A model generated the notes under the pieces. That model made no database searches and was not told the DNA's origin. It saw nothing but the letters and a program-made list of their open reading frames with translations. DNA of 64,000 bases from an uncultured virus (IMG/VR IMGVR_UViG_3300028283_000001) (Duplodnaviria; Heunggongvirae; Uroviricota; Caudoviricetes), in the IMG/VR virus record IMGVR_UViG_3300028283_000001; one strand, 5' to 3'. The position numbers were made by a program, and so were the translations under genes. The first letter of the stretch is position 1. Each line of letters starts with the position of its first letter. This document shows positions 6,979 to 64,000 of this stretch, one piece after another.

Positions 6979-7712
6979 CTTTAGACATTGTGTATCCATT
7001 GACACATCTGAGCAAGCATAGGGATGATTGGGAATTACGGTATTCTCTCCGCTCTCTGCAGCAGCAACCCTGGGTGGGGCAACTATATTTGGTGGGGCAT
7101 TGTCCTGGATGGGTTCATAATGCTATTCATGTTCCGTGTTCAGATCCTTATGCCGGCTGTAAAGATGCTAACATTATCAATAAAATTTTATTGATTTGCA
7201 ACTTGCCTGGGCTCAGTCAAGAGTTTGTTGTGAATAGTGATGATCAGTACTTTTTGCAATCTGTGCCGGAAGAAGAATTGCAGCCGGTATTGGAAAGCCC
7301 AAACAGATTGGCCGAATATAAAATGAAGTCCGGAATAAACACTTGGCATCGCCGGGTGGTGGATTCTGTTAAATGGTGCGTGGCCAGGAAGTTGCCAGAT
7401 TGGTTATTCCAAAGCCATGTTCCGTACATAGTTGATAAGGTGCAGTATCCAATGGCCATGAGTAAGGTTCCATGGGGAAATGGCAACGGCTTTACCACGC
7501 ATATTTATTTCAATTTAACGGCTACAAAGGAACCTGAAAAGGAATCTCGTGGGAGAACTTTGCGGGTAAAGATTCGAATTAATGAAGCGGAGCTGCGAAA
7601 GCAAACCGTTGGGGCGTTATTTTTTAACCACAACGATAATGGGCTTCAGCCTTGTGTTAAGAATTTTTTAGAGGAACGATTTCCAACACCATCCAGGTGG
7701 GAAAAAACATGA
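6975..7712 (+). CDS. Stealth-family-like sugar-1-phosphate transferase
   Basis: CR1-like LDIVYP; CR2-like ELRYSLRSL..PWVGQLYLVG..PGW and LPGLSQEFVVNSDDQYF; CR3-like HVP; CR4-like FFNHND. Confidence 0.75.
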   Translation: MTLDIVYPLTHLSKHRDDWELRYSLRSLQQQPWVGQLYLVGHCPGWVHNAIHVPCSDPYAGCKDANIINKILLICNLPGLSQEFVVNSDDQYFLQSVPEEELQPVLESPNRLAEYKMKSGINTWHRRVVDSVKWCVARKLPDWLFQSHVPYIVDKVQYPMAMSKVPWGNGNGFTTHIYFNLTATKEPEKESRGRTLRVKIRINEAELRKQTVGALFFNHNDNGLQPCVKNFLEERFPTPSRWEKT

Positions 7713-8188
7713 CGGCGACTGTATTTCATACTCAGCCAAAAGCATTGCGAAAAGTCTATCAGGATCTTTCCGGCGCTTGTGATAAAGTGGTGGCGGTGGG
7801 TTTTCCGGCTGAAAAGCAGAATGCATATCCGGATGGTACCCCGGTTGCTTCGGTGGCAGCGGTTCAAGTTTTCGGTGCTCCATCACAGGGGATTCCTTCC
7901 AGGGATTTTATGGCTGCTGCTAGATCAGATATAATGCGGCATCAGCATGAGGTGGCAGAAAAGGCGAATAGTCGAAGTCTGTCTGCTGCACAAATAGAAG
8001 CCCTACTGAATGCTTTGGGCAGGAAAGCGCAGGATGATATTAAGAAAGGGATCAAGGACACTAATGACCCCCCGTTGTCAGAACGAACCTTGGCATCTAG
8101 GAAGGCAAAGGGAAACATGGATCCGAAACCTTTAATTGACACGCATCACATGATTGATTCTGTCAGCTATATCGTGAGGAGGAAATAA
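7709..8188 (+). CDS. Neck/tail completion protein
   Basis: VGFP...YPDG..VA.VA....FG....IPSRDFM and PPLSERT...K....KPLIDT motifs; neck module position. Confidence 0.75.
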   Translation: MTATVFHTQPKALRKVYQDLSGACDKVVAVGFPAEKQNAYPDGTPVASVAAVQVFGAPSQGIPSRDFMAAARSDIMRHQHEVAEKANSRSLSAAQIEALLNALGRKAQDDIKKGIKDTNDPPLSERTLASRKAKGNMDPKPLIDTHHMIDSVSYIVRRK

Positions 8189-8195
8189 TGGGACT

Positions 8196-8277
8196 CAAAG
8201 CCTTTAAACATGAAAGATAAACGACGCAGGCAGACTGCTGCGACGTGCTTGGCCTTCGGCCCGTATAACCCCTTACC
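8196..8277 (+). repeat. Dispersed repeat element, copy A (82 bp)
   Basis: Identical to 23684-23765 apart from 2 mismatches; hairpin core ACGACGCAGGCAGACTGCTGCGACGT followed by TATAACCCCTTACC. Confidence 0.95.
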
Positions 8278-8313
8278 TTTAACCTTTTCGACGCTTGTAG
8301 CGGGGTTTAGAAG

Positions 8314-8730
8314 ATGTATCCGATAAGTTTCGCTTTGAAGTTGGCAATATCCTTTTTTTACATTCCTGTGGTGGTTTATGATACAGGCTATGTAACGGAT
8401 CCGGAAACTGGGGTGGATATCCGCACTATTATTGCCACCCGAGTAATACAGGCCGGAGTGGATCCATCCAGGAGCAAAGACTTGGAGCGGATTTTTGGGG
8501 GTAGTATAGGGGACGGGGATATTGGCGTTTACTGTGATACGGCCACCTTGTACATAGATGACGCATACAATCAAGGGGGCACTCGGCGACAGTCCTTTAT
8601 TTTGTATCAAGGGAATATGTTTCGGGCGATGCAAGATGCTGATTGGACCCCCCAGGCTGATGTTCGAGTTTATTTGGCAAAGCGGCATCTGGATCAGGAT
8701 GGGTTATTTGATGAGGAGGAAAGCGGATGA
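8314..8730 (+). CDS. Probable head-closure protein
   Basis: 138 aa, beta-rich, between neck and tail-terminator genes; assignment mainly by synteny. Confidence 0.55.
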   Translation: MYPISFALKLAISFFYIPVVVYDTGYVTDPETGVDIRTIIATRVIQAGVDPSRSKDLERIFGGSIGDGDIGVYCDTATLYIDDAYNQGGTRRQSFILYQGNMFRAMQDADWTPQADVRVYLAKRHLDQDGLFDEEESG

Positions 8731-13880: not shown

Positions 13881-14540
13881 ATGCAGAATCTTGAGATGGT
13901 TGGCAACGCTTTACTGGGCGGCAATATTGTTACAATAATGGCGCGGACCATTATTCGCATGAAAGCCCGAGCTGCGGCATTGGCTTTTCGCGCCCGAGCA
14001 GCGGGGTTGCAAGTGCTTGGTGGGGAACTGGAATATCAGCCTCCGCAGGTGGTCCTTGGCTGTATTCCTATCTCTGTGAAGAAGCAAGAGGCGCATACCT
14101 ATAGGGCGGACATTACACAGCATGCGGTGGAGTCAGGAGTTAACCTTACAGACCATATCATTTTGCAGCCAGTGCGGGTAGATGTTTCTTTTGAAATTAC
14201 TAACTGGGATCTTGCTAATGCTCAGCAATCTCATGATTTATTAACGAAACTGTGGGAAGATAGAATCCCGTTGGATTTAGAAACTAAACATGGCATTTTA
14301 AAAGATATGGTTATGACTTCCTACTCCGCAGAGAATAGTGTTCCAAATTGGGGGGCGCTGGACTGCCGGGCTTCTTTTACTCAGTTGAAATACATCACTA
14401 TCGAGTCCGTTAAATTTCCCAAGGAAAACGTGGCACCCACTGCAAACACCGGAGGGCCGGACAATTCTAAATCCGCAGTAACGGAGAAGAAGACTGGTCG
14501 TCAAGTTCCTCAAGAACCCGACACAACGAGCATGGACTGA
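13881..14540 (+). CDS. Baseplate/tube initiator (Dit-like)
   Basis: EAH...ITQHAVESG...TDHIILQP motif. Confidence 0.75.
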   Translation: MQNLEMVGNALLGGNIVTIMARTIIRMKARAAALAFRARAAGLQVLGGELEYQPPQVVLGCIPISVKKQEAHTYRADITQHAVESGVNLTDHIILQPVRVDVSFEITNWDLANAQQSHDLLTKLWEDRIPLDLETKHGILKDMVMTSYSAENSVPNWGALDCRASFTQLKYITIESVKFPKENVAPTANTGGPDNSKSAVTEKKTGRQVPQEPDTTSMD

Positions 14541-14541
14541 T

Positions 14542-14871
14542 ATGAAAATTATTCGACTGACAAATGATGGCTGCGGCAAGATGGATGTGGATATGGGGGA
14601 AGCGGGGTTCTATACCTTTGTTACTCGATATAATTATACGGCTGGATGCTGGACCCTGGATATTATTGATTCTGCAGGGGCGATGCTATTAGCTGGACTG
14701 ATGCTGGTGCCGGAGGTTAATATTCTTCATGCGCATCCGAATATTGTAGAAATAATTGGTGCATTGTATTTGGTGGAAAACAAGATAGGACAGTATTTAC
14801 TGCCGGATTCCCTGGGTGTTACAACCTATTTGATTTGGTATGCCCCGGAGGAGCTGATCGGAACATTATGA
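14542..14871 (+). CDS. Small baseplate protein
   Basis: YN....WTLDI.D..G..LL.G..LV motif; synteny. Confidence 0.7.
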   Translation: MKIIRLTNDGCGKMDVDMGEAGFYTFVTRYNYTAGCWTLDIIDSAGAMLLAGLMLVPEVNILHAHPNIVEIIGALYLVENKIGQYLLPDSLGVTTYLIWYAPEELIGTL

Positions 14872-23636: not shown

Positions 23637-23657
23637 CCTTTAGGTTTTATTTGCAAT

Positions 23658-23693
23658 AAAGGCTTTGGCCTTTTACAGGAGGCCAAAGCCTTT
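23658..23693 (+). terminator. Intrinsic terminator hairpin ending the late operon
   Basis: AAAGGCTTTGGCCT-loop-AGGCCAAAGCCTTT inverted repeat. Confidence 0.75.
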
Positions 23694-23765
23694 AAACATG
23701 AAAGATAAACGACGCAGGCAGACTGCTGCGACGTGTTCGGCCTTCGGCCCGTATAACCCCTTACC
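23684..23765 (+). repeat. Dispersed repeat element, copy B (82 bp)
   Basis: Near-identical to 8196-8277. Confidence 0.95.
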
Positions 23766-24235
23766 CCCCATTTATTTTGCTCCCCTTGCCTTCTTATTGT
23801 TTTGCTATTTTTAACCCGCCTTTAAATTATAAAATAAATTTAGACATTAAATTAAACTTTATGTTTAAGCAAACATTTTTTAATAGCCATATCTATAAAA
23901 AATTATCCCCGCTTTAATAAATAAATACCATTTAGTGTTTTGCCGGCCTTAAACTTCAAGTTTTTAAAATAGCCTCCAGCAGTCCAGATATCAAGAGCAT
24001 TTTTAAGGGTGATTTGGCATAATTTCCATGGCGTCGTTTTTAGGACGAAGTTAAGGGTAAAGCCCGGATAAAAGTCAAAACCACGCCTGGGCGATTCTGC
24101 GACGATTTAAAGACGGTTTTTAAAAACGCTAACCCCTTATAATAATTTAGGGTTGACGTTTTTTGATAAATGACATTTTTTGTCAATAGCTATTTTATAG
24201 CTAAAAATAAATCGTTATAGGGGTCAAAATAATGC

Positions 24236-24264
24236 TTTACTTTCTTTCGTTTCTTTAATATATT
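24236..24264 (+). promoter_or_regulatory. Sigma70-like early promoter
   Basis: TTTACT-17 bp-TATATT in the large non-coding region upstream of the early genes. Confidence 0.5.
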
Positions 24265-24738
24265 GAATCTACCCTGGAGGTCAAGCCGAAACCCTTTAAC
24301 CCCACTAGGTTGGGCGAAATTCTTTAACAATTTAAGGCTTTTAAAACCGGCGGACGGCTCACCTTTGCCCCCAAGAACCAAACGAACCTATAACCCTTTA
24401 ACACCGGCATTAACCCCTTAAAACAACCCCTGAACGATCCTTACTCCCTCGGGCACGATGAAAATGGGTTTTTAACCCTTTAAAGATTTGGCGGGGCAAA
24501 AGGATAAGCGAATAATGTCAGCAGGAAATTTTCAGTTAATTTGCCTGCAGCCGACCTCTCCCCATCCCTACCCTTGAAACTTCACGGACTTTGATGAACC
24601 CCTTATTCGCTGGATTTGAAATCGGAGATGAAAGCCGATTAGGTCTTTTCACTATATAAAGGTGAAAAGGTCTGATAGTTTTTCATCGTTTGTCAATGTG
24701 TGTTAACCCAAACAAACCAATAAAAAGGAGAAGTTACC

Positions 24739-25398
24739 ATGACGAAAAAAGCCGAAGTTAAATCCGTTGTTGCCCCTGCCGCTACCGCAGGAAAAGTGTT
24801 AACCGGGAAAGCCGCCCTGGACGCTATTAAAAAGGCCGACCCTAAAGCCGCCCTGGACGCTGCAAAAAAAGCCATTAACCTGGACGCCGTTAAAAAGGCT
24901 TCCAAAGCCCCTGAGCCGACCGCTGTAACGCCGATTAAGGCTAACGAGGTAACCTCCGAGCCGGAAGCCGTTAAAGCCCCTGAAGCCTCTGCTGCTGCTC
25001 CTGTGGTCGTCAAAAAGCGCATTAAGGTTGTTAACCCGGAAGTTGCTGCCGCTCTGGAAGCTGTTAAGGTTGCAAAGGCAAAAGCCGCTGAGGTCAAAGC
25101 CAAAATTGCCGCTGATAAGGCTGCTGCCAAAGCCGCAAAGCCCAAACGTGAAAAAGGGGTTAAACGTCAGTCCGCTTATAAAACGGGTCTTTCGGTGCTT
25201 TGCAATGATCCCCATATGGATCGCGAAACCTTTACCCTGTTGGTTAAGGGTCGGGGTGTTGCAATGACGGAAAAGAATCAGGTTCGTGTCAATCGTGCGT
25301 GGGATCGGGCAACCGACATTTTTAAACGGCTGGACGTTGCAGGTTGGTTGATTTCTGTTGGCGCTGCAGCTATTAAAATGACTGAAGACGTGAAATAA
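24739..25398 (+). CDS. Lys/Ala-rich histone-H1-like protein
   Basis: KAALDA.KKA repeats and AKAKAAEVKAK stretches; AAGGAG RBS; first early gene. Confidence 0.6.
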   Translation: MTKKAEVKSVVAPAATAGKVLTGKAALDAIKKADPKAALDAAKKAINLDAVKKASKAPEPTAVTPIKANEVTSEPEAVKAPEASAAAPVVVKKRIKVVNPEVAAALEAVKVAKAKAAEVKAKIAADKAAAKAAKPKREKGVKRQSAYKTGLSVLCNDPHMDRETFTLLVKGRGVAMTEKNQVRVNRAWDRATDIFKRLDVAGWLISVGAAAIKMTEDVK

Positions 25399-27687: not shown

Positions 27688-28182
27688 TTGATGCAACAAT
27701 ATGAAGACTATGAGAAAATGATTAAATCAATAGCGTGGAAGTTTGCCTACACCACAGATCATTTCAAAGATCTTGTTTGCGAGGGTAACCTGGAATATGT
27801 TAAAGCCCTTATTTCTTACGATTCAACCGAAGACGCTGCCTTTTCTACTTACCTTTGGAAATGCCTTTTCAATAGGATGAACGTATTGCGTAAGAAAAAG
27901 AAAATGGATTATCTTGAAGAAATTGATAAACAGTTTTCTTGTAAAGAACCTGATATTGTGCGTTTCATTATTCTTAAGGATATGATATCATCACTCAGCG
28001 CAAACGCTAAAGAAATTATTCATCTGGTGCTTGAAACACCAGATGATCTTTACGACGTTATTAAGGACGAAGCAAAACTTAATCGTCGTATTTTAACTGA
28101 TTACCTTGTTTCCCGAGGGTGGAAATTCCAGAATATCTGGGATAGTTTCAAAGAAATTAAAATGGCTTTAAACAATTTTTAA
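27688..28182 (+). CDS. Phage RNA polymerase sigma-factor-like protein
   Basis: Region 2-like MIKSIAWKF..DLVCEG....KAL.SYD....FSTYLW; region 4-like LSANAKEII. Confidence 0.75.
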   Translation: MMQQYEDYEKMIKSIAWKFAYTTDHFKDLVCEGNLEYVKALISYDSTEDAAFSTYLWKCLFNRMNVLRKKKKMDYLEEIDKQFSCKEPDIVRFIILKDMISSLSANAKEIIHLVLETPDDLYDVIKDEAKLNRRILTDYLVSRGWKFQNIWDSFKEIKMALNNF

Positions 28183-56017: not shown

Positions 56018-56704
56018 ATGTTTAGTGCTGAAGAAATTCCTCGGATTCGAAGGCGTTCATTGCCGATGTTGCCACCCTCCGTTCTTCAACGGCAAAGGGG
56101 GGAAAGGATTTGCCCAGCGCGCAATCAGAACGGTCAGCTTACATTAAAGGAAGCGTTGTTTGTTAGGGCCATCTGCTGTTGCCCCGAAGATCCCACGTTT
56201 GATAACATGTGTGCCGCCATGCGCAAGGCTGGTTATAATGGTAAGCACGTGGGGGTGGCTGCGTATGAGTTGATGAAGAAACCAAAGATCGCCAATGCAA
56301 TAGAAAAATATCGTCAAAATATTATGCAAGAATTTGATATCACACCAAAAAAAGTATTGCAAGAAATAGCGGCTACCGCATTTAGCGATTTCGGTGATTT
56401 TTATAATAATGACGGTACCCTAAAGAACTTAAAGCGACTCTCAAAGGCTGCTAGAGTCGCTTTGCATGGGGTTGATATTCAGTATGGATTGAATTCTGAT
56501 GGAATTCCAGCAGTAACACAAAAGATTAAGTTGCATGATAAGTTAAAAGGGTTAGAATTATTGGGTAAATATCATAAGCTGTTTACTGATAACGTGAATA
56601 TCACTAATTTGGATTCTGACATCACGCAGGATGAACGGGCGGCGCAAACAAGGAGCCGATTATTGGCTGAGCTTTCAAACGATAAGGATGATGGAGGCGA
56701 ATGA
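56018..56704 (+). CDS. terS: Terminase small subunit
   Basis: AMRKAGY, LMKKPKI..AI, VLQEIA..AFSD, KIKLHDKLKGLELLGKY..LF. Confidence 0.88.
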   Translation: MFSAEEIPRIRRRSLPMLPPSVLQRQRGERICPARNQNGQLTLKEALFVRAICCCPEDPTFDNMCAAMRKAGYNGKHVGVAAYELMKKPKIANAIEKYRQNIMQEFDITPKKVLQEIAATAFSDFGDFYNNDGTLKNLKRLSKAARVALHGVDIQYGLNSDGIPAVTQKIKLHDKLKGLELLGKYHKLFTDNVNITNLDSDITQDERAAQTRSRLLAELSNDKDDGGE

Positions 56705-58233
56705 CCGCATTATCTCTTATAGATTTTTGGCGCATAAGAAGGCGACATGAAGGGTTGAAAACAATCGTGCGCCCATGCCATCACACTATTGCTGAAGCAT
56801 TAACACATTTAATGCTGGGCAAGCTCTCCACTCCTAACCTTATGATATTGCAACCTCCACGTACGGGCAAATCAGATCTTTTGCGTGCGTTTCAAGAATG
56901 GGCGTTTTCATACTTTCCAGACTCAGAATTTATTGATGCGGCTTACGGCACGGATCTTGCCACGAAGATGTGTGAAGACACCCGGACAACCTTGTCGGCA
57001 TCTTGGTATAGAGATTGTTGTGATTCTACTTGGGGCGCACATGTGGCGTCAAGGGGGGCAAGCGTAGGAGGAAGAAAAGATTACTTTCACACTGTAGAAG
57101 GCGGCAGCGTGAAGGCGGTGGGTAGTGGAACGGGGTCTTTGGGTTTTGGGGCAGGAAAGTTACGACCAGAGTTTGGCGGGGCGGTTTTGATAGATGATCC
57201 TTTGAAGCTACAGGATGCCACTTCTGTAGCGGTGAGAAAAAGCACTGTTGAATGGATTCATGGGGCATTAGAATCCAGACGGAACAGGAAAAAAGATCCT
57301 ATGACCCCATTGGTTCTTGACATGCAAAGATTACATCCACAAGACCCTGCTGGTCATCTTTTGTCTACAGAGCGTCACCGGTGGACGGTGATCCAAGTTC
57401 CTGCACATGATGAAAACAATCAATCTATTTGGCCTGCTCGGATTAGTATGAATGAGCTTGAACACCTTAAAATATATGATCTTGATACGTACCTTTCTCA
57501 GTACATGCAATCACCATCTACCACCGCGTACGAATTATTAATATCTGATTGGTGGCGATTTTGGGTTGATAGAAGTGAAGTGGAGAAACGCATTACCCTG
57601 AAGTTGATCACCGCTGATACCGCTTTTAAAGAAGGGGATAGCAACGATTACAGTGTTTTACAATGTTGGGGGTGTTTAGGAGTAGGCGGAATGGTTCTTC
57701 TTGATCAGGTTCGGGGCAAGTGGGATTTTCCTGATTTATGTAAAGAGGCCATAGATTTTTTGAAGAAGCATCGACAGCCGATCCCCGGCATCACCCCTGT
57801 GACGGAGTGTTGGGTAGAAGACCGGGCCAGTGGAACTTCTCTTGTGCAAACACTTCGAAAGGCTGGGCTTCCTTTTCGACAATGGCTCCCTCCGCATGCT
57901 GATCAAAAACTGATTGATGGAAGCCAGGTTTTATCAGGCCCGGATAAGGTGAGCCGAGTAAAGCAGAGCAGTATGACAATTAAGCCTGGTAGAATCTTTT
58001 TACCCTGGCCAGGACTTTCTGATTGCCGTTGGGTGGAGGGGCTGGTTAATGAGTGCATGTCTTTTAGTAATGATGATTCTCATCTTTATGATGATCAGGT
58101 GGACGCAATGACCATGGCTAACCTTATTTGGCAACAACGGGGCGGGGGCGTAGGGGCCATTTCAGTTGTTCGGAGTAACGGGTGGCAAGATTGGTTGCAT
58201 CGGAACGAACAGCATTGGAGGAAAGCCGCATAA
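56701..58233 (+). CDS. terL: Terminase large subunit
   Basis: PPRTGKS Walker A, LIDDPLK Walker B, MQRLH..D, YMQSP, DTAFK...NDYS, VEDRASG, DDQVDAMT. Confidence 0.95.
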   Translation: MTALSLIDFWRIRRRHEGLKTIVRPCHHTIAEALTHLMLGKLSTPNLMILQPPRTGKSDLLRAFQEWAFSYFPDSEFIDAAYGTDLATKMCEDTRTTLSASWYRDCCDSTWGAHVASRGASVGGRKDYFHTVEGGSVKAVGSGTGSLGFGAGKLRPEFGGAVLIDDPLKLQDATSVAVRKSTVEWIHGALESRRNRKKDPMTPLVLDMQRLHPQDPAGHLLSTERHRWTVIQVPAHDENNQSIWPARISMNELEHLKIYDLDTYLSQYMQSPSTTAYELLISDWWRFWVDRSEVEKRITLKLITADTAFKEGDSNDYSVLQCWGCLGVGGMVLLDQVRGKWDFPDLCKEAIDFLKKHRQPIPGITPVTECWVEDRASGTSLVQTLRKAGLPFRQWLPPHADQKLIDGSQVLSGPDKVSRVKQSSMTIKPGRIFLPWPGLSDCRWVEGLVNECMSFSNDDSHLYDDQVDAMTMANLIWQQRGGGVGAISVVRSNGWQDWLHRNEQHWRKAA

Positions 58234-60738
58234 ATGCTAAAAAATACATTGACTCCACAATTCACTCGTAAATCACGGGTTCAAAATGCTTCTTTCGCCT
58301 CTTCTATTAATGGGGCATTAGGAGAGGGGGATAGAGGCGCTTTTCAACGAGTCCCTGCTATTACTGGAAACCCATACGAATTTCAGAACTATCTTGACCG
58401 CTGGCGGCAGTATTGCCATCTGTATGAAATCTGTTGGGAAGCCCGTAAAATAGTCCGTATCCCTGTGGAGGACGCATTACGAAAAGACTGGGAAATAGAG
58501 AATATTCCAGAGGGGATTACCAAAATACTTCGTAAGGAAGAAAAGAAGTTTAAGTTCCGTGATTCCCTTGCCCGTGCATGGATGCTGGAGCGGTTATTGG
58601 GAGGGTGTATACAGTTTTTTGGCCTGGAGCAGAATACAGATGATGTTTCTAAGCTGTACCAACCATTACTGGGAATGTCAAAGCTGCGGTTTATCAATGT
58701 TATCCCTGTCAGCAGAATCTCCCGTGTAAATTGGGAGACTGACCCCCTGAAGATAGGCTATATGCGGCCTAACGAGTTCATAATTAATGGGCATAATATG
58801 CATATCAGCCGGTGTATTCTGTGGGATGGAGAACCGCTGTTCGACCCATATGATTTCGCTCTTACTCAGTTCAGGGCGAACCTGGCGGGATTTGGGCCCA
58901 GTAAACTTGCTCCTATATGGGATGATATCGTAAAGGCTGTAGGTACCAGGCAGGCTGCATATCAACTTATCCAAACCAATAATGCTCTGATAATGGCCGT
59001 CAGCCAGTTGCAGGATCTTGTGGGGACCAACCCCGGAAAGGCAAAGCTGGCAGAACTAAAAGAGATCACCAAACATTTATCCCTTTATCGAGCGGCCATT
59101 ATAGATAAGGAAAAAGTTACGATTAGTCAGCAGTCCGCAGCCTTTGGCAGTGTTCCGGAATTGCTGATGACATTCTTACAAGTCTTATCGGCCGCTTCCG
59201 ACATACCGGCCACCCGGTTTCTGGGGCAGGCCCCCGGTGGGCTGAACGCCACAGGAGAAAGTGATTTGGAGAATTACTATAATGTGGTGGATGCCATGCA
59301 GCGGCAGAAACTGGAACCTGCCATTCGACAATTTTATGATATCCTCGGGTATCATAAGTGGCCAGACAGCTGGGGGAGAATCCGGGAAGACCTGGAGATC
59401 AAGTTTCCACCCCTTTGGAATATCAATGAGCTGGAAGAAGCACAAAAGAATCAAATCGAGATTGCCAATGTTATGCAGTGTTGGGAAGCGGGGGTTTTGC
59501 CTGATGAAAAGTTGGTTGAGGAGCTTAATCTGAAACAGGTTTTTTCCTGTGACTTGGACGAGAAAGATATTGACCTGATGAAGTCCATGCAGGATGATTC
59601 TGGTTTTTATGGGGCTGATCAGGGGGTTGATTCTTCTGAGGAGAGACGCAGGCAGACTGCTGCGACGCGTTCGGCTGGGGGTCAAGGGGGTTATAAGGGT
59701 GAAGGTGAGGGGGAGAAACCTGCGACCGCTGAGGGGCCACCCCTTAAAAAACCACCTTTGTCTAAAATTGGGAACAAAGCCGAATTTAAAGAAGAAGAAC
59801 ACCCACGGGCTGATGATGGTAAGTTTGGTTCTGGGGCGGGTGAAGCTTCTGTGACAGATAAAAAACCAAAGCCTGCTAAAATGTCTGACGAAGAAAAGAA
59901 TCAACAGAAGGAAGAACAATTTCAAGAGTTGTTGGCGACTAAAAACCCGCATGATCAAGAAGCCTTTAAAAAGGCACAAACATTAGGGATAAATGTTCAG
60001 CCCGCTTGGACAGATGTGTGGGTAAACGATGATCCTAACGCTGATATTTTAGCTTTGGGCCGCGATAAGAAAGGAAAATTGCAATATACCAGGAGTGCAG
60101 CAGCCTCCAAACGGGCTGAAATTAAAAAGTATAACCGCTTACGAGATTTTAGTAATGATTATGCGGGAATTATGAATGCTGTTGATAAAGATTTTTATCG
60201 GTCTGTTGAATCTCAAGTTCTTTATTTGATTAGCAAAACGGGTTTCCGCGTGGGCGGGGAAGAAGGTTCCACGGCGGCTGAAGAGCAAGCATATGGGGCA
60301 TCTACACTGACTTCTGATATGGTGAAGATAGACGGTGATGTTATTCAGTTTACCTTTACGGGTAAGCATGGGGTAAAACAAAATCATTTGTTGACAGACC
60401 CTAAAATGGCCAATTTGCTTCGTCATAAACAGGGACAACTTTTTAACACTAATGATGCAAAAGTTTTAAAGTATATGAAAAAAACAAGCGGTAAGGATTA
60501 CTTGACGAAAGATTTAAGAACTTATGTTGGGACAAAGACCGCCCTGGTTGCAATAGAAAAGATGGACACCCCCGTGGGGGAAAAGGCAATTAAGAAGGCC
60601 ATGATGGAAGTGGCTAAAATTGTGAGCGCTAAATTAGGCAATGCCCCTAAAATGGCGCTTGATAGTTATATTGATCCAATGGTATTTGATCGGTGGAAGG
60701 GGTTAGCTGATGCTACAAAGCAACAACAAAAAGGATGA
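58234..60738 (+). CDS. Portal protein (DUF1073-like) fused to a C-terminal DNA topoisomerase IB domain
   Basis: Portal motifs ARKIV.IP.EDA.R and AASDIP.TRFLGQAPGGLNATGESDLENYY; TopIB motifs PAWTDVW..GRDKKGKLQY, TGFR, YGASTL, FTGKHG, KDLRT, LGN....SYIDP. Confidence 0.9.
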   Translation: MLKNTLTPQFTRKSRVQNASFASSINGALGEGDRGAFQRVPAITGNPYEFQNYLDRWRQYCHLYEICWEARKIVRIPVEDALRKDWEIENIPEGITKILRKEEKKFKFRDSLARAWMLERLLGGCIQFFGLEQNTDDVSKLYQPLLGMSKLRFINVIPVSRISRVNWETDPLKIGYMRPNEFIINGHNMHISRCILWDGEPLFDPYDFALTQFRANLAGFGPSKLAPIWDDIVKAVGTRQAAYQLIQTNNALIMAVSQLQDLVGTNPGKAKLAELKEITKHLSLYRAAIIDKEKVTISQQSAAFGSVPELLMTFLQVLSAASDIPATRFLGQAPGGLNATGESDLENYYNVVDAMQRQKLEPAIRQFYDILGYHKWPDSWGRIREDLEIKFPPLWNINELEEAQKNQIEIANVMQCWEAGVLPDEKLVEELNLKQVFSCDLDEKDIDLMKSMQDDSGFYGADQGVDSSEERRRQTAATRSAGGQGGYKGEGEGEKPATAEGPPLKKPPLSKIGNKAEFKEEEHPRADDGKFGSGAGEASVTDKKPKPAKMSDEEKNQQKEEQFQELLATKNPHDQEAFKKAQTLGINVQPAWTDVWVNDDPNADILALGRDKKGKLQYTRSAAASKRAEIKKYNRLRDFSNDYAGIMNAVDKDFYRSVESQVLYLISKTGFRVGGEEGSTAAEEQAYGASTLTSDMVKIDGDVIQFTFTGKHGVKQNHLLTDPKMANLLRHKQGQLFNTNDAKVLKYMKKTSGKDYLTKDLRTYVGTKTALVAIEKMDTPVGEKAIKKAMMEVAKIVSAKLGNAPKMALDSYIDPMVFDRWKGLADATKQQQKG
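59645..59700 (+). repeat. Dispersed element core, copy D (in the portal-TopIB linker)
   Basis: GACGCAGGCAGACTGCTGCGACGCGTTCGGC followed by GGGGTTATAAGGG. Confidence 0.9.
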
Positions 60739-60739
60739 A

Positions 60740-61048
60740 ATGCCAGTAACGGATGGGGACGTGTTAATGCAAGATTATGTGCATTCGATGATCTTTCAAA
60801 ACGCTGATGGCACTATATTTGATGAATCTGCAGATGGAACGGAAGCGTCGTCCCCTCAGGTTGTTATTCACAACATGGTTTCTGCCCCCGTTATTTATAA
60901 CCCAGAACAGGTTATGGCAGGAATGAAGGTAGAGTTTGAGCATAACGATTTAACACAAGGGGATCCGGTTAAGATTGCAGAAATTGTTAAGGCCCATCTG
61001 GATGAGGATCCTGAATACTACACCAAACTTGAAAAGGCGGGGTTATGA
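60740..61048 (+). CDS. DUF5661-like small protein
   Basis: GMKVEFEH......IV.AHL.EDPEYYTKL. Confidence 0.7.
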   Translation: MPVTDGDVLMQDYVHSMIFQNADGTIFDESADGTEASSPQVVIHNMVSAPVIYNPEQVMAGMKVEFEHNDLTQGDPVKIAEIVKAHLDEDPEYYTKLEKAGL

Positions 61049-61302
61049 ATTCTTTTGAAAACGGTAGGCAAAAAGCATTGAATGCATTCAAAAAGAAAGA
61101 AGCTGAGCAGGGTTTAATTTTTGGGCGTACGTGGGAAGAGGTTCAATCAATGCAGCAAAAAACATATATTCCCAAAACGGTTGATGTTTCCCCTGTTGGG
61201 GATTATGGTGCAGACCCATTGGGAAATGGTAAATTTAAAATGGTTCCATCTGGGGATATTGTTGACTTGGCAGAAATGAAGCGAAGGCGGGGTTATAAAT
61301 AA
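61045..61302 (+). CDS. Small hypothetical protein with NSFENGRQKA motif (candidate capsid cargo)
   Basis: N-terminal motif shared with 11459 and 62235 ORFs; in the head operon. Confidence 0.65.
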   Translation: MNSFENGRQKALNAFKKKEAEQGLIFGRTWEEVQSMQQKTYIPKTVDVSPVGDYGADPLGNGKFKMVPSGDIVDLAEMKRRRGYK

Positions 61303-61303
61303 A

Positions 61304-62218
61304 ATGCCGCTTATCCTTGACATACGGCAGGCAAAAGCGCTGAAGCGGAAAAAACGGGTGAAGAAACTTCGACCTGTGAAATCCCCGGCTATGGCGCAGA
61401 AGCTGTTGCAGCAGCAAACAGAACGTCTATGGGAACAGATTATTTTCCCTTCCCTGGAGCGGATTAAACAGGCCGTGACCAATGGGGTAGATCTTGAGCA
61501 GCTTTCCCAGCTGTTGCAGCAGGAAATGGAGCAAGCCGCGTGGATGTATGGAATGGAAACCGAACAAATTGTAGATATGTGGAGGTTGACGGTAGATAAG
61601 TTAACCAAAATCAAGTTGAATGCTGTGCTTAACAGGTCTTTGGGTATTGATTTGACTGCGGTGCTGGATGACCCCTCTGTAGCAGAAGCCTTGGCGGTGG
61701 GAGCGTTTCAGGCGGAGGAGCTTATCAAAACCATGCCGACAAAAGTCATGGGGCAGGTTGCGCAGGCGGTAATGGCCAATATGCGGGGGATCCCGCTACC
61801 GGAGGGGCGCAGCCTTCTTCAGCAGATAGAGTTTCTGGGCACCCGGAGTAAAAAATGGGCCCATGTTATTGCTCGTGATCAAACTGCGAAACTCAACGCC
61901 ACGCTGAATCAAACCCGGCAACAGGCGCTGGGCATTGACACTTATATTTGGCGTACGATGGAGGATTTACGGGTAGTGGGCAATCCTGCAGGGCAGTATC
62001 CTGGGTGGAATGATAAGCATATGGACCATTATGTAATGGACGGGTTATATTGCCGGTGGGATGATCCCACTGTATTCAGCACGGATGAAGGGAAGAGCTG
62101 GAGAAAGCGCACCGGAAAGATGCCAAAGAATCACCCAGCGGATGACATTCTTTGCCGCTGTTATACGGAAGCTGTGATGGACTTGGATAAAATACTGGCG
62201 CATGCCACTGTACAGTGA
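61304..62218 (+). CDS. Head morphogenesis protein (MuF/SPP1 gp7-like)
   Basis: IARDQTAKLN......RQ..LGI..Y.W.T..D.RV, H..MDG..C.WDDP, HP.DDILCRC. Confidence 0.9.
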   Translation: MPLILDIRQAKALKRKKRVKKLRPVKSPAMAQKLLQQQTERLWEQIIFPSLERIKQAVTNGVDLEQLSQLLQQEMEQAAWMYGMETEQIVDMWRLTVDKLTKIKLNAVLNRSLGIDLTAVLDDPSVAEALAVGAFQAEELIKTMPTKVMGQVAQAVMANMRGIPLPEGRSLLQQIEFLGTRSKKWAHVIARDQTAKLNATLNQTRQQALGIDTYIWRTMEDLRVVGNPAGQYPGWNDKHMDHYVMDGLYCRWDDPTVFSTDEGKSWRKRTGKMPKNHPADDILCRCYTEAVMDLDKILAHATVQ

Positions 62219-62234: not shown

Positions 62235-63116
62235 ATGAGTTATAATGTTATGATTTCAGATAAATCTAAACCGAATACCGCACCGACAATGAAATTTGCT
62301 AAAGATGAAGCGGAGGCAAAAGCAATCGTTTCTCATGCAAAAGGGATGGGGTTAGAAGCTATTATGAAATTGGTAAGTAAAGATTATGATGAAAAAGCAT
62401 TTATTGCTTCCAGAAAAAAATCAGAAAAACATAATAAGAAAATTAATAATGTTTTCCAAAACGCAATTATTGATTATGGTGGGGGTTACCGAGTTGCTTC
62501 AACGCCTGTTGGCTGGATTGTTTTTTATTCTGGGATTAAGGTTGGGCATGGAAATAATGAAGAGGAAGCGAAACAGGTTATTAGAGATGATAGCAAGAAA
62601 AGGTTTTTTGGTCATCCACATGAGCCTGTTGCAAATTGTGCTTTCCAAAATGGTCGCACCCGCGCACTCGATCATATTACAAACAAGGCAGGGTTGGTTG
62701 GTGTGAAGCTGGAGAATGCGGGTGATGCGTATGAAGAAGGTGAGAATGCTGCACAGAATAATGTTTCACGAAATGCAAATAAATACCCCAAAGGATCAGG
62801 GCAATGGAAACAATGGGATTCTGGATGGAGTAACGCAACAGGAAACAGGTTGAAAAAGAAAGTAGCAAACATGGCAAGTAAGATTGGGGTACGGGTGGAG
62901 AATGCGGCAGTGTTGTATAAAACAGAATCAAAAAGCAAAAAATTTATCATTACGGTTACGAATGATAAAGAAGGTATTATTGAAGTAGTTAGCACAAGGG
63001 CAGATGGGTTTTATCCAACAGTAGAAGATCGAAGTAAATATACGGATGATAAGTCGAGACAACAGGTGATTACTATGGCTAAATCCTTTGCGGATAGTTT
63101 TGCAAGAAATAATTAA
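62235..63116 (+). CDS. Modular hypothetical protein (candidate cargo polyprotein)
   Basis: Short modules separated by FQNA, FQNG, VKLENA and VRVENA; between MuF and protease genes. Confidence 0.65.
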   Translation: MSYNVMISDKSKPNTAPTMKFAKDEAEAKAIVSHAKGMGLEAIMKLVSKDYDEKAFIASRKKSEKHNKKINNVFQNAIIDYGGGYRVASTPVGWIVFYSGIKVGHGNNEEEAKQVIRDDSKKRFFGHPHEPVANCAFQNGRTRALDHITNKAGLVGVKLENAGDAYEEGENAAQNNVSRNANKYPKGSGQWKQWDSGWSNATGNRLKKKVANMASKIGVRVENAAVLYKTESKSKKFIITVTNDKEGIIEVVSTRADGFYPTVEDRSKYTDDKSRQQVITMAKSFADSFARNN

Positions 63117-63126
63117 GGCTAAAATC

Positions 63127-64000
63127 ATGAAAATTACAAACCAGTTTACGCCAATCGCTCCCGAGTCTCCGAAGTGGGAAAAGACTGAGGACGGCTTTCT
63201 CCGCTGCAAGGCAAGGGTATTGATGGAGACCATAATGCCTTATGGTAGAAACGAGCTTGAAGGGCTGCCAGAGGGCTTTAAAAATTCAACCGTAAATATG
63301 TACGTACCCCTTGATGAAATAGTCGCCAGTGACGCCCTGCGGTCTCTGGAGGGGATGCCTATAGTGGCTGGGGACCATACTTGGATGACTCCGGAACTGA
63401 TATCCGATTATTCAATGGGCAATGTTTCTGGCACTCCGGTGGTAGAAGGGGGTAGTTTGATTTGTAACATTCTGGTGACGAATCCTGAAGCCATCGCCGC
63501 TATAGAGAATGGAAAGATCGGAGAGATTTCTGCAGCCTACCGAGCAGAGACAGAATTTGTCAATGGCACGTGGAATGAACAAACCTATGACGCAGTGCAA
63601 CGGGGCTTGCGTTTCAATCATATTGCTGTGATTCCGAAAGGACACGGCCGAGGCGGAAGTGAAGTACGAATCTTAAACAAAAAACAGGAGGACGTGAATA
63701 CCATGAGTGATGAAAAGAAAAAAGTCAGAGTGAAACTCCGGAACACCGGGAAGTATGTCAATGTGGATGAGGATGTGGCTCCGGACATCGAAGCTGAGGC
63801 CGATGCGGGGGAAGCCAAAACGGCGGGTATGGATGATAAGATCAGTACCCTGGAAGGGAAGAACGCTGATCTTGAAGCTCTCCAGGCAGAGATTGAGGAA
63901 CTGAAAGGGGAGCTGTCCGTGTACAAAGAGAAACTGGATCAGCTGCTCTCAGAGGAATCTGTTGAAGCTGCGGCTGAAGGCATGGTGGCAGAAACGGGCG
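63127..64000 (+). CDS. Prohead protease/scaffold (DUF2213-like), truncated by the window edge
   Basis: Read manually: MKITNQF..TEDGFL..SLEGMPI..H..EISAAY..FNHIAVIPKGHGRGGSEVRILN, then an acidic coiled coil; open to the end. Confidence 0.85.
   Translation, partial: MKITNQFTPIAPESPKWEKTEDGFLRCKARVLMETIMPYGRNELEGLPEGFKNSTVNMYVPLDEIVASDALRSLEGMPIVAGDHTWMTPELISDYSMGNVSGTPVVEGGSLICNILVTNPEAIAAIENGKIGEISAAYRAETEFVNGTWNEQTYDAVQRGLRFNHIAVIPKGHGRGGSEVRILNKKQEDVNTMSDEKKKVRVKLRNTGKYVNVDEDVAPDIEAEADAGEAKTAGMDDKISTLEGKNADLEALQAEIEELKGELSVYKEKLDQLLSEESVEAAAEGMVAETG

Follow-up and report, generated by a model that had tools for sequence, protein, structure and literature searches.

What is a type IB topoisomerase (TopIB) doing at the end of a phage portal protein? 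The question is raised by one open reading frame (ORF) in IMGVR_UViG_3300028283_000001, a stretch of 64,000 nucleotides from an uncultured virus that is called the window here, at its whole length. The phage is an uncultured lake-water myovirus with a circular genome of about 70.5 kb, and the ORF (58234..60738, + strand, 834 aa) joins a portal domain to a TopIB module. We found that the fusion is a genuine single gene and not a misassembly, and that the same TopIB clade is borne by several other head-assembly proteins. On balance we lean towards the view, based on sequence comparison and on analogy, that the enzyme is cargo of the capsid interior, probably cut free and expelled with the DNA, and that it relaxes DNA early in infection.

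A preliminary description of the locus had read the ORF as a portal, a low-complexity linker, a KIGN border, a segment with the residues HPR and a TopIB. This anatomy was confirmed. According to the ORF listing and the translation, the 834 codons form one uninterrupted frame as described, with an ATG start, no internal stop and a stop codon at 60736-60738. The N-terminal part is a portal protein of phrog_146 (E 1.2e-71) and matches Phage_portal_3 (PF06381, which we take to be the former DUF1073) at aa 59-410 (58408..59463; 210.7 bits against a cutoff of 33.8, E 3.4e-62). An AlphaFold model of the full-length protein was built on 46 sequences (mean predicted local distance difference test score (pLDDT) 80). 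It is confident for the folded portal, which ends at about aa 456, and again for TopIB, which begins near aa 550. Solved portals that it matches include 8hds_A (E 9.8e-17), 8fvh_O and 9l01_M, and the phages represented among its portal matches are Pam3, E217, T1 and XM1; TopIBs were matched as well. The two folded parts are separated by a linker of about 90 residues (aa 459-549, 59608..59880) that is rich in G, E, K, A and P and predicted to be disordered. Values of pLDDT under 50 were assigned to aa 459-470, 472-520 and 526-549, and G, E and K each account for 17 of 130 residues in this region, in keeping with the low complexity noted before. Within the linker lies the segment KIGNKAEFKEEEHPRADDGKFGSG (aa 511-534), which comprises the border motif KIGN (aa 511-514, 59764..59775) and a tag, FKEEEHPRADDGKFG (aa 518-532, 59785..59829). 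The TopIB module proper (aa 581-821, 59974..60696) consists of an N-terminal beta-sheet domain and a catalytic domain. All these features are on the + strand.

The TopIB module looks complete and catalytically competent, as far as its sequence and its structure model can tell. Topoisom_I (PF01028) was found at aa 627-802 with 59.8 bits against a cutoff of 23.7 (E 3.2e-16), and Top1B_N_bact (PF21338) at aa 588-611 was borderline (27.0 bits, cutoff 27); the model has three strands at aa 593-620, in the region of the N-terminal beta-sheet domain. A phmmer search of the PDB with aa 551-834 retrieved the TopIB of Deinococcus radiodurans (2f4q, E 2.4e-26). The five catalytic motifs named in the preliminary description are present, with R672, K711, R762, N803 and Y812 standing opposite R137, K174, R239, N280 and Y289 of the 2f4q chain (numbers counted along the printed alignment), which we take to be the catalytic residues of that enzyme. 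The corresponding codons begin at 60247, 60364, 60517, 60640 and 60667 (span 60247..60669, + strand). All five residues are invariant in 9 of 9 portal-TopIB proteins. Across an alignment of 31 rows at 35-44% identity, R, K, R and Y do not vary and N is kept in 90% or more of the rows, so that selection for the catalytic residues is clear from sequence. A model of aa 560-834 alone (31 sequences) reached a mean pLDDT of 95 and a predicted template modelling score of 0.88. Searched with Foldseek, it ranked bacterial TopIB first (2f4q, E 5.8e-14) and matched the variola TopIB-DNA structures 2h7f and 3igc over both domains (TMq 0.74, root-mean-square deviation 3.4-3.6, about 277 columns). Tyrosine recombinases were far weaker (the best was XerH, E 1e-3, TMq 0.41). 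The TopIB fold expected for this part of the chain was thus obtained both by profile and by structure. The module has in common with Deinococcus TopIB (2f4q, 3m4a) and variola TopIB (2h7f, 3igc) the two-domain fold and the Arg-Lys-Arg-Asn-Tyr pentad, the Asn in fourth position being the bacterial form. It is about 30% identical to the Deinococcus enzyme. Unlike that enzyme, it is not a free cellular protein but a C-terminal portal module preceded by a tag. Its clade is large, with 707 representatives at E ≤1e-30, and the members are frequently found within phage head proteins.

Contigs matching the gene were found in lake-water metagenome runs. Run X1, possibly the source of the window itself, has a contig of 13,160 bases that spans 58234-61100 with 0 differences. 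Short contigs of three other runs (X5, X6, X7) cover 59292-60138 piecewise without indels, and the junction at 59500-60100, for which a misassembly had been considered at the outset, gives no sign of one. Contigs from RNA libraries (X6 and X7, which possibly contain DNA) cover parts of the gene, including 60501-60769 with 0 differences. In addition, 8 of the 120 homologs listed have the same portal-TopIB architecture; they are 46-60% identical and lie on separate contigs.

TopIB modules of this kind are found on many carriers. A HMMER pass with aa 560-834 against 1.84 billion representatives returned 4,322 matches at E ≤1e-3, of which 707 were at E ≤1e-30, and the top 150 were 210 to 4,668 residues long. 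When the first 72 of the top representatives were scanned with Pfam, 11 had a portal domain (PF06381 in 7, Portal_Mu in 2, PF04860 in 2), 6 had MuF, 6 InPase and 1 an XkdF-type prohead protease; ART-PolyVal, SLT, DNA ligase, SNF2, GNAT and 2H were further partner domains. In IMG/VR, a single peptide pattern pointed to 323 stretches that encode a relative. We kept 79 non-self loci, and the scan covered their 49 TopIB ORFs of at least 430 aa and not the 30 shorter ones. Portal fusions account for 21 of the 49 (19 with PF06381, 1 with the lambda-type PF05136 and 1 with Portal_Mu, PF06074), MuF fusions for 4 and a DUF2213 protease fusion for 1; InPase, NUDIX, ART, 2H, Zeta toxin, a rubrerythrin-like domain and the anti-CBASS enzyme Acb1 are other partners. 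Taken together, the head-assembly carriers of the clade comprise four portal families, MuF and two prohead-protease families. The clade also occurs in proteins of 1,500-4,668 aa, beside ART, NUDIX, Acb1, GNAT and ligase domains.

Among 50,697 deposited phage records searched by tblastn, the portal part of the protein was present in 992, none of which covered 80% or more of the whole protein; the TopIB domain had 2 matches in the same records, at less than 30% identity, and the fusion was in none. A scan of genome contigs gave 8 loci, all in metagenome-assembled genomes (Dehalococcoidia and other Chloroflexi, Clostridiaceae and Balneolaceae).

A few of the IMG/VR proteins have composite architectures. 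One viral protein of 1,508 aa (L030, 4792-9315) combines GNAT, TopIB and the Acb1 anti-CBASS phosphodiesterase in one chain, and a known counter-defence enzyme is here in the same cargo-type polyprotein as TopIB. In another locus (L012, 1662-5531), a portal has Zeta toxin and TopIB as its C-terminal extension, and two further portals (L016, L017) have multi-module C-terminal extensions of 2H phosphoesterase and TopIB.

Close relatives of the window portal swap the C-terminal module, which may be InPase, one of two ART types, an unassigned domain or nothing at all. In related portals, which the preliminary description had thought worth surveying for other C-terminal cargo, InPase, ART, DUF5661 and unassigned modules are present. 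The portal sequence is shared up to a conserved L-P-K-I-G/Q-N and diverges thereafter, LPKIGN or LPKIQN standing at the equivalent place in the relatives P0002, P0006, P0009 and P0012. Beyond this border, the window phage continues with KAEFKEEEHPRADDGKFG and TopIB, P0002, P0006 and P0012 with DUF5661, and P0009 with a module of about 240 residues that has no assigned family. The more general motif [KQ][IV]xN is likewise found at the end of DUF5661 (YYxKLEKVEN) and immediately before further tags.

In three relatives, we noticed modules of about 200-300 residues (P0009 aa 505-745, P0014 aa 470-770, P0002 aa 590-760) that have no Pfam match at E ≤0.001. They are putative cargo domains of no assigned family and are flanked by border and tag motifs of the same kind.

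Over 75 distinct instances, chosen by a regular expression that fixes E, H and R, the tag reads [FW]-x-E-[SE]-x-H-P-R-x-x-D-G-[KR]-F-G in consensus, with a Gly/Ser run after it. A regular expression found it in 58 of 215 TopIB-bearing sequences, where the LGN..Y motif follows about 265-280 residues later. It is found at the N-terminus of stand-alone TopIBs and, in P0033, ahead of an ART domain. We also considered whether the HPR tag might be a general site of the head protease; this was rejected, since the tag occurs only once, in open frame, in the genome of about 70.5 kb. Sites resembling the [IV]-x-N borders of the portal extension are present in two other products of the head module: QICN|AM and MIQN|AG, of the form I-x-N|A, in the C-terminus of the scaffold (L001 7088-8335), and KKINN|V and KKVAN|M in the 293-aa ORF (62235-63116), in both cases counted with no control for chance. 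Tag and [KQ][IV]xN borders may together be a portable code for loading, and possibly cutting, head cargo. The T4 internal proteins IPI-III and Alt have a capsid targeting sequence that is removed by the prohead protease. It, too, is a short portable peptide before unrelated head cargo, and the tag described here is found even on stand-alone TopIBs. However, the tag differs from it in sequence ([FW]xE[SE]xHPRxxDG[KR]FG) and in being internal in the window protein, where the cargo is already covalently loaded.

How would a portal-borne enzyme act? A portal is built of twelve subunits, with the C-terminal crown turned to the inside of the capsid, and we found no second portal and no other topoisomerase among the scanned ORFs of the genome. 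Because this is the sole portal gene found, and because a dodecamer would turn its C-terminal ends inwards, it is a sound inference that about 12 TopIB domains enter each prohead, as the preliminary description had proposed. Assembly of the portal would place up to twelve modules inside every prohead with no separate packaging step, and the enzyme would come to lie inside the head. During head maturation, the module would be cut from the portal at or near the border and tag, and the freed TopIB would leave the head along with the DNA. In the cell, it would relax supercoils without ATP before any phage gene is expressed, its target being the incoming phage genome, the host chromosome or both. 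That the module is most likely freed in maturation and expelled is suggested by its interchangeability, its many carriers, the portable tag and the recurring border. TopIB appears to be one swappable cargo among several (InPase, ART, others) that any head-assembly protein may carry. The preliminary description had left two functions open, torsion relief during packaging or ejection and cutting-off followed by injection. The comparison favours the second, given the MuF, protease and multi-enzyme fusions and the portable tag, and leaves some room for the first.

Two bodies of earlier work bear on this proposal. Portal-InPase, portal-PBECR and portal-2H fusions were read as injected effectors by Iyer et al. 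2017 (PMC5512222). In their polyvalent and portal- or MuF-fused effectors, for example the portal-InPase of Burkholderia phage BcepF1, a head domain is joined to a swappable enzyme, as it is here: the window protein has a portal and an unrelated enzyme in one polypeptide, and its domain make-up varies among relatives. It differs from those proteins in having no metallopeptidase domain. TopIB is not among the domains in the main text of PMC5512222, where the word topoisomerase appears once, in a reference, and the supplements may hold a TopIB entry. Portal- and MuF-borne effectors are known; TopIB would be a further cargo of this kind, and it is widespread in uncultured phages. The nearest parallel for the enzyme itself is vaccinia TopIB, likewise a type IB enzyme borne in the virus particle. 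It is said to act primarily in early transcription (PMC12188299), and titles in the reference list of that paper describe it as encapsidated and its knockout as reducing early transcription. Vaccinia TopIB is, however, a free core protein of a eukaryotic virus whose transcription takes place within that core, whereas the window enzyme is covalently part of a tailed-phage portal and would need to be cut free and to pass the tail.

Several observations weigh against TopIB as released cargo. A domain tethered to the portal cannot leave the head uncut, and the cut site is a candidate only; no processing peptidase domain was found in the fusion polypeptide with Pfam. The preliminary description had placed a cut at KIGN|KAEF. 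KIGN or KIQN does recur as a module border, and [KQ][IV]xN is enriched, with 75 occurrences in the C-terminal extensions of 121 portals against 21.7 +/- 4.3 after shuffling (maximum 32 in 200 shuffles), but the motif is in excess in the portal body too (68 against 34.8), so that shared ancestry inflates the figure. The border can be retained, and the cut is a candidate suggested by sequence. Ahead of the tag, conservation among the 75 instances is only weak. A FastTree built from 153 TopIB segments speaks for cargo, in that carriers of different kinds are mingled on it and the PF06381 label changes at least 8 times on well-supported branches, but the tree has many weak forks, and the labels 'solo' and 'other' include fragments and unscanned ORFs. 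Coverage of the gene by X6 and X7 was rejected as proof of transcription, since such libraries may hold DNA. Finally, a role at the portal vertex is just as compatible with tethering at the DNA channel and with the MuF fusions.

Such a role is the strongest alternative. The twelve TopIBs might stay on the portal and nick and reseal DNA near the channel, thereby releasing the twist of packaging or ejection. The enzyme is covalently attached to the sole protein through which all DNA passes, and the linker of about 90 residues could reach DNA near the crown. The module is also fused to MuF, and some MuF-type proteins bind the portal; moreover, cleavage of the fusion is a prediction only. Nevertheless, we consider this possible but unlikely. 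The clade is present in multi-enzyme proteins of 1,500-4,668 aa and as tagged stand-alone proteins, and its position on the portal is taken in relatives by InPase or ART, for which a role in packaging is not plausible. Most portals of the family are without TopIB (8 of the 120 listed have it), and TopIB is therefore not needed for packaging as such. If the enzyme did stay on the portal, it would be relevant to the long-standing problem of how phages deal with twist in packaging and ejection.

A more specific form of this idea draws on the nucleotide sequence. CCCTT is the pentamer of poxvirus TopIB. In the genome it is neither avoided nor favoured (189 copies against 178.8 +/- 12 expected, with 18 of 100 shuffles reaching 189). 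The longer AACCCYTTA, which contains CCCTT, occurs 12 times in the whole window against 1.7 +/- 1.3 expected, a count reached by 0 of 100 shuffles. Its elements are probably promoters or iterons, and a tie to TopIB is speculation. Were TopIB a permanent part of the translocating vertex, a built-in swivel with the seven clustered AACCCYTTA repeats as its preferred cleavage sites, it would be the first known case of an enzyme that handles DNA twist within a phage head; we hold this to be very doubtful.

A different possibility is that released TopIB acts mainly on host DNA, as a weapon against the host or its defences, by relaxing the DNA, by shutting the host off or by blunting a topology-dependent defence. 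Among the domains with which it shares polypeptides are several with a known or predicted part in conflicts, namely Acb1 anti-CBASS (L030), ART-PolyVal, Zeta toxin, NUDIX and 2H, and the framework of polyvalent proteins set out in PMC5512222 would accommodate it. On the other hand, this proposal overlaps with the cargo explanation that we prefer, and sequence does not separate the two. With about twelve copies in a cell, TopIB would have to work against host gyrase, and we know of no defence system that it would neutralise. We regard it as rather improbable.

It has also to be asked whether the TopIB fold is used without catalysis, as a clamp or anchor that holds the genome end at the portal. 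TopIB is an enzyme that closes around duplex DNA, the variola structure matched by the fold is a closed, DNA-bound form, and the position at the DNA channel would be suitable. The invariance of the five catalytic residues in 9 of 9 fusions, and their near-invariance in 31 sequences at 35-44% identity, is not expected of a mere clamp, and the chance of such a role seems remote. That a chimeric assembly or a sequencing frameshift merged two genes is scarcely credible, even for a metagenome-derived window whose X1 contig may be its own source, since contigs from three other runs match the junction free of indels and the same fusion has turned up in 21 IMG/VR loci and in 8 diverged homologs that lie on separate contigs.

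A few proteins are known to enter the cell with the DNA of tailed phages. If TopIB is indeed cargo, many uncultured phages would deliver a ready-made, ATP-independent DNA-relaxing enzyme at infection. Control of DNA supercoiling would then be an early battleground between phage and host, and the phages would provide an independent parallel to the virion TopIB of poxviruses. If tag and borders are a portable code, they could be used to engineer phage cargo. The open-access papers (full text) and bioRxiv preprints that we searched contain no report of a portal-TopIB fusion, of a capsid-packaged phage TopIB or of a phage that carries a topoisomerase into the cell. A stand-alone, phage-specific topoisomerase I (TopIB) is recorded for a few jumbo phages (phiRSL1, Lu11, PaBG, Motura and NCTB) in a 2021 survey (PMC7824862), whose passages on DNA recombination and topology discuss the enzyme and report no fusion to a head protein. 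None of these five phages gave a tblastn match to the window TopIB at 1e-5.

The window is almost entirely coded on the + strand. It contains genes for a tail sheath, baseplate, tape measure, DNA polymerase, helicases, primase and clamp loader, as well as UvsX/UvsY-like proteins and resolvases; a tRNA scan of the window found none. An IMG/VR contig (L001) is 100% identical, extends beyond the window end and re-enters the window at 1-280 (its positions 14456-14735, 99.3% identity over 280 bases). Because L001 thus joins the window end to its start, the genome is circular or circularly permuted, with about 70,455 bp.

The fusion gene is part of a head module with the order TerS, TerL, portal::TopIB, DUF5661, an 85-aa ORF, MuF, the 293-aa ORF, a head maturation protease/scaffold of the DUF2213 type, a structural protein and the major head protein (L001 9023-10045). 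The terminase small subunit (56018..56704, +) matches Terminase_2 (Pfam, E 8.1e-23) and phrog_51. It is followed by the large subunit (56701..58233, +; phrog_38, E 2.4e-68; Terminase_6C), which ends 1 base ahead of the portal start codon. Downstream of the fusion lie a small acidic DUF5661 protein (60740..61048, + strand, +1 frame; PF18905, E 1.1e-8), the MuF-type head morphogenesis gene (61304..62218, +; PF04233, E 1.1e-7; phrog_324, E 4e-38) and the protease/scaffold gene (63088..64000, +; PF09979, E 1.9e-30; phrog_530, E 4e-47). The last of these leaves the window, and its full 416 aa are encoded in L001 at 7088-8335.

The largest non-coding stretch of the window (23640-24740) is AT-rich. 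It harbors seven + strand copies of AACCCYTTA (at 23755, 24131, 24290, 24392, 24412, 24474 and 24597; cluster 23755-24605) and a perfect 15-nt hairpin at 23657-23694. The product of a small ORF at 27688-28182 weakly resembles an RNA polymerase sigma factor (phrog_351, E 4.6e-7), which may bear on phage-specific promoters such as AACCCYTTA.

In relatives, DUF5661 usually ends or follows the portal chain, and in the window phage it is a separate gene. Its ATG at 60740 lies 4 bases after a Shine-Dalgarno-like AAAGGA and 1 base past the portal stop (an alternative ATG is at 60710). Because AAAGGA and this ATG fit, the sequence is consistent with a separate, translationally coupled gene. We also considered a programmed frameshift from the portal into DUF5661; it would have to be +1, and CAA CAA AAA GGA TGA offers no plausible slip. 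DUF5661 is an acidic module of about 65 residues with the motifs E-x-E-H and A-H-L-x-E, and in one IMG/VR locus (L057) a Rubrerythrin Pfam match stands at its position. This match hints that DUF5661 may be a ferritin-like metal-binding half-bundle.

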